This document shows, piece by piece, positions 44,236 to 44,805 of a stretch of DNA of 64,000 bases. Source of the stretch: a virus (Duplodnaviria > Heunggongvirae > Uroviricota > Caudoviricetes); IMG/VR virus record IMGVR_UViG_2721755646_000011. One strand, written 5' to 3'. The notes under the pieces were generated by a model. That model was not told where the DNA came from, searched no databases, and was given only the letters and a program-made list of their open reading frames with translations. Numbering within the stretch: position 1 is the stretch's first letter; the number at the start of each line of letters is the position of its first letter. The translations under genes and the position numbers were made by a program.

Positions 44236-44805
44236 TCAATCCGCCTTTGTTATTTTCCCTTTGCCTGTATCAGCCAGGACAAAATCAATCAGCATATTCG
44301 CTTCATTTACCAGCGTACGGATTTTTGATACATGCGCGGCTTTAACCTGTTTCCACTCATTCAGCCCGGTAGCAAACACACTGGCAATGTTTTTATCCCG
44401 TTTCATGTCAGCACAAGCCTGGTTGAGTTCTTCCATCACGCTCATTTTACGGGGATTAACGACAAAACCCTTCGTCCAGTACTCGTAAAGAACATCGTCG
44501 CACTCTTCCTGATACCGGATGACCTTATCGCGGATTTCGGGTTTTACTTTGTTGGGATTAATGGTTTGTAGCCAGCCGGCAAGTTTTCGAAGTGGCATGG
44601 ACACCATATTGCGTTGTTTCCCATCCTCAGCAACCATAACGATTTCCGTTATAGTTGACGCAAAACGCTGTCTTAACTTAGCCAACTGTGATTGCCAGGC
44701 CAGCCCCATCCCCGCAACGACAGGTTTCATGGGAACGTATGGTTCGCCATTATGGTTAACTACATAAAGAGAGTTGCCGTGAAACGGCACGGCCATCATA
44801 TTCAT
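44236..44805 (-). CDS. phage antirepressor (AntA/Bro-N-like)
   Basis: 189-aa ORF with N-terminal domain resembling AntA-type antirepressors; between endolysin and Rz. Confidence 0.55.
   Translation of the reverse strand: MNMMAVPFHGNSLYVVNHNGEPYVPMKPVVAGMGLAWQSQLAKLRQRFASTITEIVMVAEDGKQRNMVSMPLRKLAGWLQTINPNKVKPEIRDKVIRYQEECDDVLYEYWTKGFVVNPRKMSVMEELNQACADMKRDKNIASVFATGLNEWKQVKAAHVSKIRTLVNEANMLIDFVLADTGKGKITKAD

Follow-up and report, generated by a model that had tools for sequence, protein, structure and literature searches.

The antirepressor Ant of phage P22, encoded in the immI region, is a 300 aa protein made of two domains, P22_AR_N and P22_AR_C. Its gene lies within the late operon and, in the P22 annotation, has its own promoter under the control of Mnt and Arc, as well as an antisense RNA, sar. 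In P22 and phi80, another late-operon gene, rha (orf201 in P22), is placed just after the lysis genes, and the literature on Rha that is cited in PMC4936722 describes its product as blocking phage growth in IHF-deficient hosts; the phenotype and the IHF control reported in those cited works concern Rha alone. P22_AR_N and the ORF11CD3 domain are both members of the 'Bro network' of domain-shuffling phage proteins (PMC10111431). In Stx phages, two distinct genes go by the name of ant. That of Phi24B, which has a homologue in the nin region of VT2-Sakai (the second 'ant' of this phage), is an early gene located upstream of qut, and its deletion lowers the activity of the late promoter pR' after induction (PMC3064807). 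The other is placed between R and Rz in VT2-Sakai, 933W-type phages, BP-4795 and YYZ-2008, and is entered in the VT2-Sakai record as 'ant; similar to antirepressor of bacteriophage P22'. Finally, short repressors of the DicA/GfoR type are inactivated by antirepressors, and those proven to do so are small proteins unrelated to Ant (PMC3121763, PMC10448788). Rem, a small protein of the Qin prophage that relieves DicA, was found by its similarity to the Gifsy antirepressors (PMC10448788).

An earlier note, made from the letters of a viral record of 64,000 nucleotides (IMG/VR IMGVR_UViG_2721755646_000011; this whole stretch is called the window below), had placed an antirepressor-like gene between the endolysin and Rz genes. 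This placement was confirmed: a 189 aa ORF, called ant hereafter, is found amid endolysin R and Rz/Rz1, the same gene with the same neighbours as the R-Rz 'ant' of the Stx phages (Table 1). It starts with an ATG, and an AGGA Shine-Dalgarno sequence (SD) is present 8 nt upstream. The 2.9 kb lysis region is 100% identical to that of many O157 genomes (O157:H7), and beyond Rz/Rz1 in the gene order come an HNH gene, then the terminase genes. An interval of 270 nt separates endolysin from ant. On the other side is a membrane ORF of 49 codons, which the EDL933 annotation lists as a hypothetical protein. Its ATG shares bases with the stop codon of ant (TGATG), it ends 7 nt ahead of Rz, and it is translationally coupled to ant. 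In an ant-less prophage (L338, about 11010-11110, minus strand), an unrelated membrane ORF of 32 codons occupies the same spot ahead of Rz, and a small membrane peptide at this place may be a regular component of such lysis cassettes.

Table 1. Position of the features discussed in the text, in the coordinates of the window
Feature	Position	Strand	Remarks
Rz, i-spanin	43615-44082	-	
Rz1, o-spanin	43677-43862	-	embedded within Rz
49 aa membrane ORF	44090-44239	-	predicted; phrog_4906, function unknown
ant-like gene	44236-44805	-	189 aa; P22_AR_N residues 5-113, ORF11CD3 residues 122-164
ant start codon (AUG)	44805-44803	-	
ant SD	44817-44814	-	
Structured leader RNA	44800-44939	-	about 135 nt; covariance-model match 91.3 bits
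Leader helix F (AGGAUACCGG / GGCUGGAUUCCU)	44886-44877 with 44852-44841	-	
Leader helix E (GACCCUUG / CAAGGUUC)	44894-44887 with 44834-44827	-	
Leader pseudoknot helix A (CACAGAA / UUCUGUG)	44912-44906 with 44859-44853	-	
Leader hairpin H2	44936-44933 with 44925-44922	-	
Terminator-type hairpin (AGGCA...TGCCT)	44938-44966	-	T-rich tail; 5' edge of the cassette
Endolysin R (Phage_lysozyme)	45076-45609	-	hydrophobic segment at the N-terminus
YdfR/DUF1327 protein	45660-46007	-	
Holin S, phage-21-type	46009-46329	-	ORF as listed; PGAP call shorter, 216 nt
NanS-p-like esterase	46374-48284	-	
Q-like late antiterminator (DUF1133 / Phage_antitermQ)	50672-51214	-	presumed source of terminator-resistant late transcription
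Rem homologue	52979-53239	-	86 aa; 73% identity to K-12 Rem
YdaT-like gene	57800-58351		after the Cro-like gene
Cro-like gene (P22_Cro/YdaS-like)	58335-58562	-	divergent partner of the repressor
DicA-family prophage repressor	58639-59046	+	135 aa; HTH only, no S24 peptidase

The antirepressor domain on which the earlier note had staked its reading was found by profile search. The Pfam match of the ant product to P22_AR_N (PF10547) has an E-value of 1.4e-45 and is followed by a match to ORF11CD3 (E 5.5e-6); in PHROGs, the protein matches phrog_524, 'anti-repressor Ant' (E 2.4e-112), over positions 7-210 of the 317 of the profile. The 189 aa protein has no Pfam match to P22_AR_C (PF10548). Since Pfam AntA gave no match in it either, at E <= 0.01, the label 'AntA-like' used in the earlier note was a misnomer taken from the wrong family: the likeness is limited to the N-terminal domain of P22 Ant, with about 50% identity over residues 1-126. 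In contrast to P22 Ant, window Ant ends with an ORF11CD3 C-terminus, and its gene, also within the late operon, has a different leader and no Mnt-, Arc- or sar-type regulators nearby (the neighbours are lysis genes, no sar match was found with Rfam, and no promoter consensus was detected). As for the Phi24B-type Ant, it has the same name as window Ant and is likewise related by descent to P22 Ant, but shares the other half of the P22 protein (ORF6N followed by P22_AR_C), which it resembles in the C-terminal 104 residues. Thus, the only Ant of an Stx phage that has experimental support is the product of another gene. The N-terminal domain, which is the variable one in proteins of this kind and is P22_AR_N here, is predicted to adopt a KilA-N/APSES-like DNA-binding fold, and no nuclease signature is present in it. 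Among solved structures, a sequence search gave nothing for the ant product, and Foldseek against the PDB gave nothing significant.

As a gene, ant is already known, and has long been annotated among the accessory genes of Stx and related prophages. The same protein, with 100% identity, is encoded by 'ant' in VT2-Sakai, YYZ-2008, PA21 and dozens of other phages converting to Stx1a or Stx2a; its PGAP label is 'phage antirepressor N-terminal domain-containing protein', and a survey of Stx phages counted Ant families in 126 genomes (PMC8136144). Together with the leader described below, it is present in 819 complete E. coli genomes out of 5,426. The number of copies per genome has a median of 3 and reaches 9. 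No experiments on the 189 aa protein were found in the searchable literature. Two-domain proteins of 187-190 aa form a family, with 60-92% identity and 43 invariant residues, in ten genera (Escherichia, Salmonella, Photorhabdus, Xenorhabdus, Serratia, Proteus, Providencia, Arsenophonus, Sodalis and Hamiltonella). Because this architecture is conserved across genera, the 189 aa form is not a remnant of truncation. One could otherwise imagine that ant is what is left of a full-length P22-type ant, decayed and functionless, given that its product covers only the part of the PHROG profile mentioned above and has 111 aa fewer than P22-type Ant. Such a decay is hard to reconcile with a family that keeps the same length and the same ORF11CD3 C-terminus in many genera, with the intact reading frame, good SD and conserved leader of ant, or with the hundreds of identical copies. 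Already contradicted by conservation, it is highly improbable.

Upstream of ant, a consensus scan of the minus strand (44806-45075) revealed no sigma-70 consensus promoter; this was a crude search, which a weak or non-sigma-70 promoter in the 270 nt gap could escape. No strong terminator was found 3' of ant, the terminator-type hairpin being upstream instead. The promoter of its own and the downstream terminator that characterise a moron were not detected for ant, a weak promoter being possible with so crude a scan. There is no LexA box (CTGT-N8-ACAG) near ant. Expression restricted to the late phase, as supposed in the earlier note, is plausible for a gene that is co-oriented within the lysis cassette, has neither a sigma-70 consensus nor a LexA box upstream, and is preceded by a terminator-type hairpin.

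Downstream from this hairpin, the gap contains a structured leader RNA. Across genera, the order of the elements in the gap is the same: terminator hairpin, small hairpin H2, then a pseudoknot. The latter is of the H type, helix A joining an upstream strand to the loop of a long hairpin made of helices E and F, and between this E+F hairpin and the SD downstream there are 9 nt. A covariance model (R1) was built on H2, E and F, helix A being left out of it. The leader was found in all loci of full-length homologues, with E-values from 1e-8 to 1e-24, and in IMG/VR, where two pattern scans were followed by the model, about 180 leader matches were obtained, mostly with E below 1e-12. A terminator hairpin, GC-rich and with a U tract, is present ahead of nearly every leader copy. 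It is strong in most other genera and weak in E. coli, where with 5 bp and an interrupted T tract it may therefore not terminate.

Pairing was analysed on 107 distinct leader copies. Paired cells amounted to 91.8%, compared to 73.9% in shuffled controls and at most 45% in slid ones; 14 of the 16 pairs were altered on both sides, and the covariation score was 0.565 against 0.249. Helix A, being outside the covariance model, was tested without alignment, by setting each upstream segment against its own 3' strand and against those of the other copies. Cognate duplexes had a mean energy of -8.4 kcal/mol, compared to -3.8 for non-cognate ones, and the observed value was not attained in any of 2000 permutations (34 strand variants). 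A pair count for helix A on the alignment (A5) gave 54.8% paired, in a region that is modelled as unpaired and is out of register, and the alignment-free duplex test was used instead. For helices E and F, cognate pairing was favoured in the same way. The compensatory changes in three helices mean that selection acts on the structure of the RNA, beyond DNA homology, and the G-U pairs found on the gene strand point to the sense RNA as the folded species.

Several known types of element were considered and rejected. The strand order recalls a double pseudoknot, but no Rfam model of a ribozyme or riboswitch (HDV-like, twister, others) scores, and no hairpin exists between the 3' strands of helices A and F. 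A leader peptide could have been encoded by a 19 aa ORF (44896-44837); it is not conserved, with a stop after 8 codons in Photorhabdus and no ATG in Serratia. An anti-SD switch, in which the pyrimidine strand of helix F would pair with the SD or with an upstream purine box (CAGGAU / UAGAAAU), shows no covariation: for these alternative pairings with the SD and the purine box, cognate strands were not better than non-cognate ones (1701 and 1351 of 2000 permutations). More generally, Rfam 15 gave no credible match for the leader (searched in 43000-49200 and 44700-45100 of the window, and in 39300-39800 of P22), and no description of it came out of literature searches, prior notice elsewhere being possible. 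Upstream of other accessory genes, the leader model gave weaker matches (33-48 bits) that are richer in GC (EDL933, L336, 6310-6444; L150, 10382-10517; L099, 4552-4687; L103, 2119-2253), the EDL933 example preceding a TerB-family gene that comes after prophage tRNAs. These may be related to the leader but diverged from it.

The leader is shared by genes other than ant. In viral contigs, it was followed by a gene for Phage_pRha (83 cases), KilA-N, often with ORF11CD3 (54), HNH_3 (12), P22_AR_N with ORF11CD3 (10), the GIY-YIG-like T5orf172 (5), Bro-N (4) or ANT (2). It was also seen ahead of KilA-N in Hamiltonella and Symbiopectobacterium, of Rha in Mangrovibacter and of Bro-N in Xenorhabdus, and several contigs had two or three copies of it. 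At the protein level, a profile made of Ant residues 118-189 detected the C-termini of KilA-N and Rha proteins, P22 Rha included. The leader and the ORF11CD3-like tail are therefore constant, and the N-terminal domain is swapped, a pattern that matches the Bro network. In P22 itself (NC_002371), the leader is present at 39505-39649, between Rz and rha, with a score of 84 bits. The annotated start of rha (39575, for a gene reported at 39575-40180) falls within the conserved leader; both the covariance model and the presence of a good SD point to 39644 instead, for a protein of 178 aa. Rha and window Ant have in common a place just after lysis genes, the pseudoknotted leader, a related ORF11CD3-like C-region and a similar size, and differ by the N-terminal domain, Phage_pRha in the former and P22_AR_N in the latter.

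The surroundings of distant homologues were examined by inspecting their home contigs, one genome per species being scanned and the neighbours annotated with a small custom library. All full-length homologues were within or adjoining a lysis cassette, in the same type of position across genera; homologues having only the N-domain were located outside lysis cassettes. Lysis-cassette neighbours were seen in Photorhabdus, Xenorhabdus, Proteus, Providencia, Serratia, Arsenophonus, Hamiltonella and Symbiopectobacterium, with endolysin and spanin families that differ: the holin is holin_2_1 or holin_3_1, the endolysin is Phage_lysozyme or an unrelated protein of 134-136 aa, and the spanins are Rz/Rz1 or DUF2570/LysC. 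Most often the homologue is 3' of the endolysin gene, and in some Photorhabdus 3' of Rz, with a gap ahead of it of about 170-270 nt in every case. The cassette consists of a terminator-type hairpin, a pseudoknotted leader of about 135 nt, and a gene for a small two-domain 'Bro-network' protein. Window ant has all of these features, i.e. an N-domain joined to an ORF11CD3-like C-domain in the size range of the group (about 160-200 aa), a lysis location on the same strand, and the hairpin with its leader. Here the cassette lies ahead of Rz, at a distance of about 105 nt from the stop codon of the endolysin gene.

A junction devoid of the cassette is found in strain 2571. Its ant-less R-Rz junction is homologous to the window for about 105 nt beyond the R stop codon, and homology ends just 5' of the hairpin; a hairpin of its own is present in this junction, and the 49-codon membrane ORF is replaced there with one of 32 codons. 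A break at this precise place, in a junction that is otherwise homologous, is what one would see if the cassette were mainly a selfish exchangeable unit, the post-endolysin site, marked by terminator and leader, being a recombination hotspot where genes of the DNA-binding or endonuclease type are swapped with little benefit to the phage. One leader ahead of unrelated N-domains, and of HNH_3 and T5orf172 genes, agrees with it, as do the contigs with two or three leader copies; moreover, domain swapping is a known trait of the Bro network, and it has been proposed that HNH_3 mobilises Bro genes (PMC10111431). However, the compensatory changes in three helices reveal selection on RNA structure, the 188 aa protein has been kept at 60-92% identity with its 43 invariant residues in ten genera, and P22_AR_N lacks a nuclease signature. 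We consider exchange for its own sake to be a quite unlikely explanation of the whole.

Our preferred reading, which we regard as probable, is that ant belongs to a late-operon cassette of the P22-rha type that is common in enterobacterial lambdoid prophages, of which this is one copy, and is not a partner of the immunity system of this prophage. According to this scheme, ant would be transcribed only within the Q-antiterminated late transcript, because it has no consensus promoter and the upstream terminator would stop other polymerases. Judging from its position relative to the SD, we infer that the pseudoknot sets or tunes the translation of ant, and a feedback via the shared ORF11CD3-type C-terminal domain is one possible mechanism for this control. 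Ant itself would be a late-acting regulator of the lytic cycle that binds nucleic acid or protein, by analogy with P22 Rha. We also propose, tentatively, that the terminator hairpin and H-type pseudoknot form an undescribed class of cis-regulatory RNA, which would govern the whole set of Bro-network genes that take each other's place in the late operon of enterobacterial phages (those for P22_AR_N, Rha, KilA-N and Bro-N, with rha of P22 among them). The leader offers a handle on an old puzzle, which is that lambdoid phages keep small genes of the Rha/KilA/Ant type beside their lysis genes; such genes are harmful if misregulated, an example being the phenotype of Rha in IHF mutants as described in the works cited in PMC4936722. 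A defined RNA element common to more than 180 phage contigs and to P22 is directly testable.

We then turn to the immunity region. The repressor had been described in the earlier note as DicA-like, 135 aa long and devoid of an autocleavage domain, and this description is accurate. It matches the NCBIfam model 'transcriptional repressor DicA' (NF007257) with 241.6 bits (cut-off 101) over positions 1-135 of 135, and is 63% identical to K-12 DicA; in Pfam, only HTH domains were found in the repressor at 58639-59046, and no match to Peptidase_S24. In the Stx phages that have the same ant, in contrast, the repressors are CI proteins of the S24 type: Peptidase_S24 was detected in those of VT2-Sakai (E 5.5e-29) and BP-4795 (E 3.8e-16), and the BP-4795 cassette is 97.8% identical to that of the window at the nucleotide level. 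The same cassette being found alongside S24 repressors, ant goes with the lysis module rather than with that of immunity. Furthermore, a gene served only by the late promoter cannot start the induction of its own prophage, and Ant would not be the trigger of this induction.

The prophage has another gene that would better answer a repressor of the DicA type. Between hok and DUF968, as in Qin, sits a homologue of Rem, which PGAP calls a hypothetical protein only. From its sequence and position, it is likelier than ant to be the cognate antirepressor. The known inactivators of DicA/GfoR-type repressors, Rem in Qin, and GfoA, GfhA and FsoA in Gifsy and Fels-1, are unrelated to the 189 aa protein both in sequence and in size. 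The Gifsy antirepressor genes are controlled by LexA, whereas no LexA box was found near the Rem homologue, nor, as said above, near ant. For the induction of this O157 prophage with a non-cleavable repressor, the Rem homologue is the first candidate, not ant. The earlier note had suggested that induction of this prophage may depend on an antirepressor: this stands insofar as short DicA/GfoR-type repressors do yield to antirepressors (PMC3121763, PMC10448788), but the tie between ant and the DicA-type immunity of the prophage is not supported, as an identical ant coexists with S24 repressors, the Rem homologue is a better candidate, and P22_AR_C is absent.

The window contains three perfect LexA-box-like sites in all (6589-6604, 16390-16405 and 57482-57497), compared to 0.8 expected by chance. 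One is within an ORF of a prophage replication gene, and two are in the effector/IS region between prophages.

It had also been suggested that Ant could derepress co-resident prophages. Expressed late, it would then be a trans-acting antirepressor binding the short, non-cleavable repressors of heteroimmune prophages, and would couple their induction to that of its own phage. Against our cassette reading, P22_AR_N is half of a genuine antirepressor, to which window Ant is about 50% identical over residues 1-126. Trans-acting cross-talk between prophages by way of antirepressors is established in Salmonella, where one antirepressor has no part in the induction of its own phage (PMC3121763), and O157 genomes have many lambdoid prophages. 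Of the one designated prophage 1 in the earlier note, only the left arm is in the window (exonuclease, xis and int, the last at 4560-5690), its repressor being outside. A prophage of strain 2571 that matches the window from 854 onward (854-6000, 99%) encodes a 127 aa HTH repressor, weakly similar to DicA and without a peptidase domain, and has no ant of its own between R and Rz.

The tight silencing of ant, with a terminator upstream and a structured leader, suggests a product that is unwelcome in the lysogen, and suits this trans-acting role; this layout fits an antirepressor and an activity of the Rha or Kil type alike, and does not separate the two. Other observations argue against action in trans on repressors. 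The ant product is devoid of P22_AR_C, and it is a different gene, located upstream of qut and encoding ORF6N and P22_AR_C, whose product was shown to help induction in an Stx phage (PMC3064807). The antirepressors proven to act on DicA/GfoR-type repressors are small and unrelated to it (PMC3121763, PMC10448788). Leader and C-terminal domain are also those of Rha, KilA-N and Bro-N proteins, and this points to a shared function other than the recognition of one class of repressors. Lastly, a neighbouring prophage of EDL933 encodes the identical protein, under the same WP accession, so that ant is no private weapon of one prophage. Overall, we find coupling of induction by Ant unlikely, and retain the late-operon cassette reading.

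A few additional features were noted in the window. The early-right region, between the replication genes and hok, contains the adhesin gene paa (53948-54706, minus strand; AcfC family in the EDL933 annotation), which is also present in the counterpart prophage of EDL933. Between a methylase gene and the NanS-p gene, Rfam matches were obtained for AgvB, the anti-GcvB sRNA (48372-48431, plus strand; 56.6 bits, barely over threshold), and for STnc100 (48433-48641, minus strand; 175 bits), together with two tRNAs (48754-48827 and 48911-48983, both on the minus strand). The stretch between the prophages (6990-20744) contains NleG-like and other type III effector-like ORFs, elements of the IS66 and IS256 families, and an integrase fragment (17147-17887), and looks like a much-rearranged effector exchange locus.
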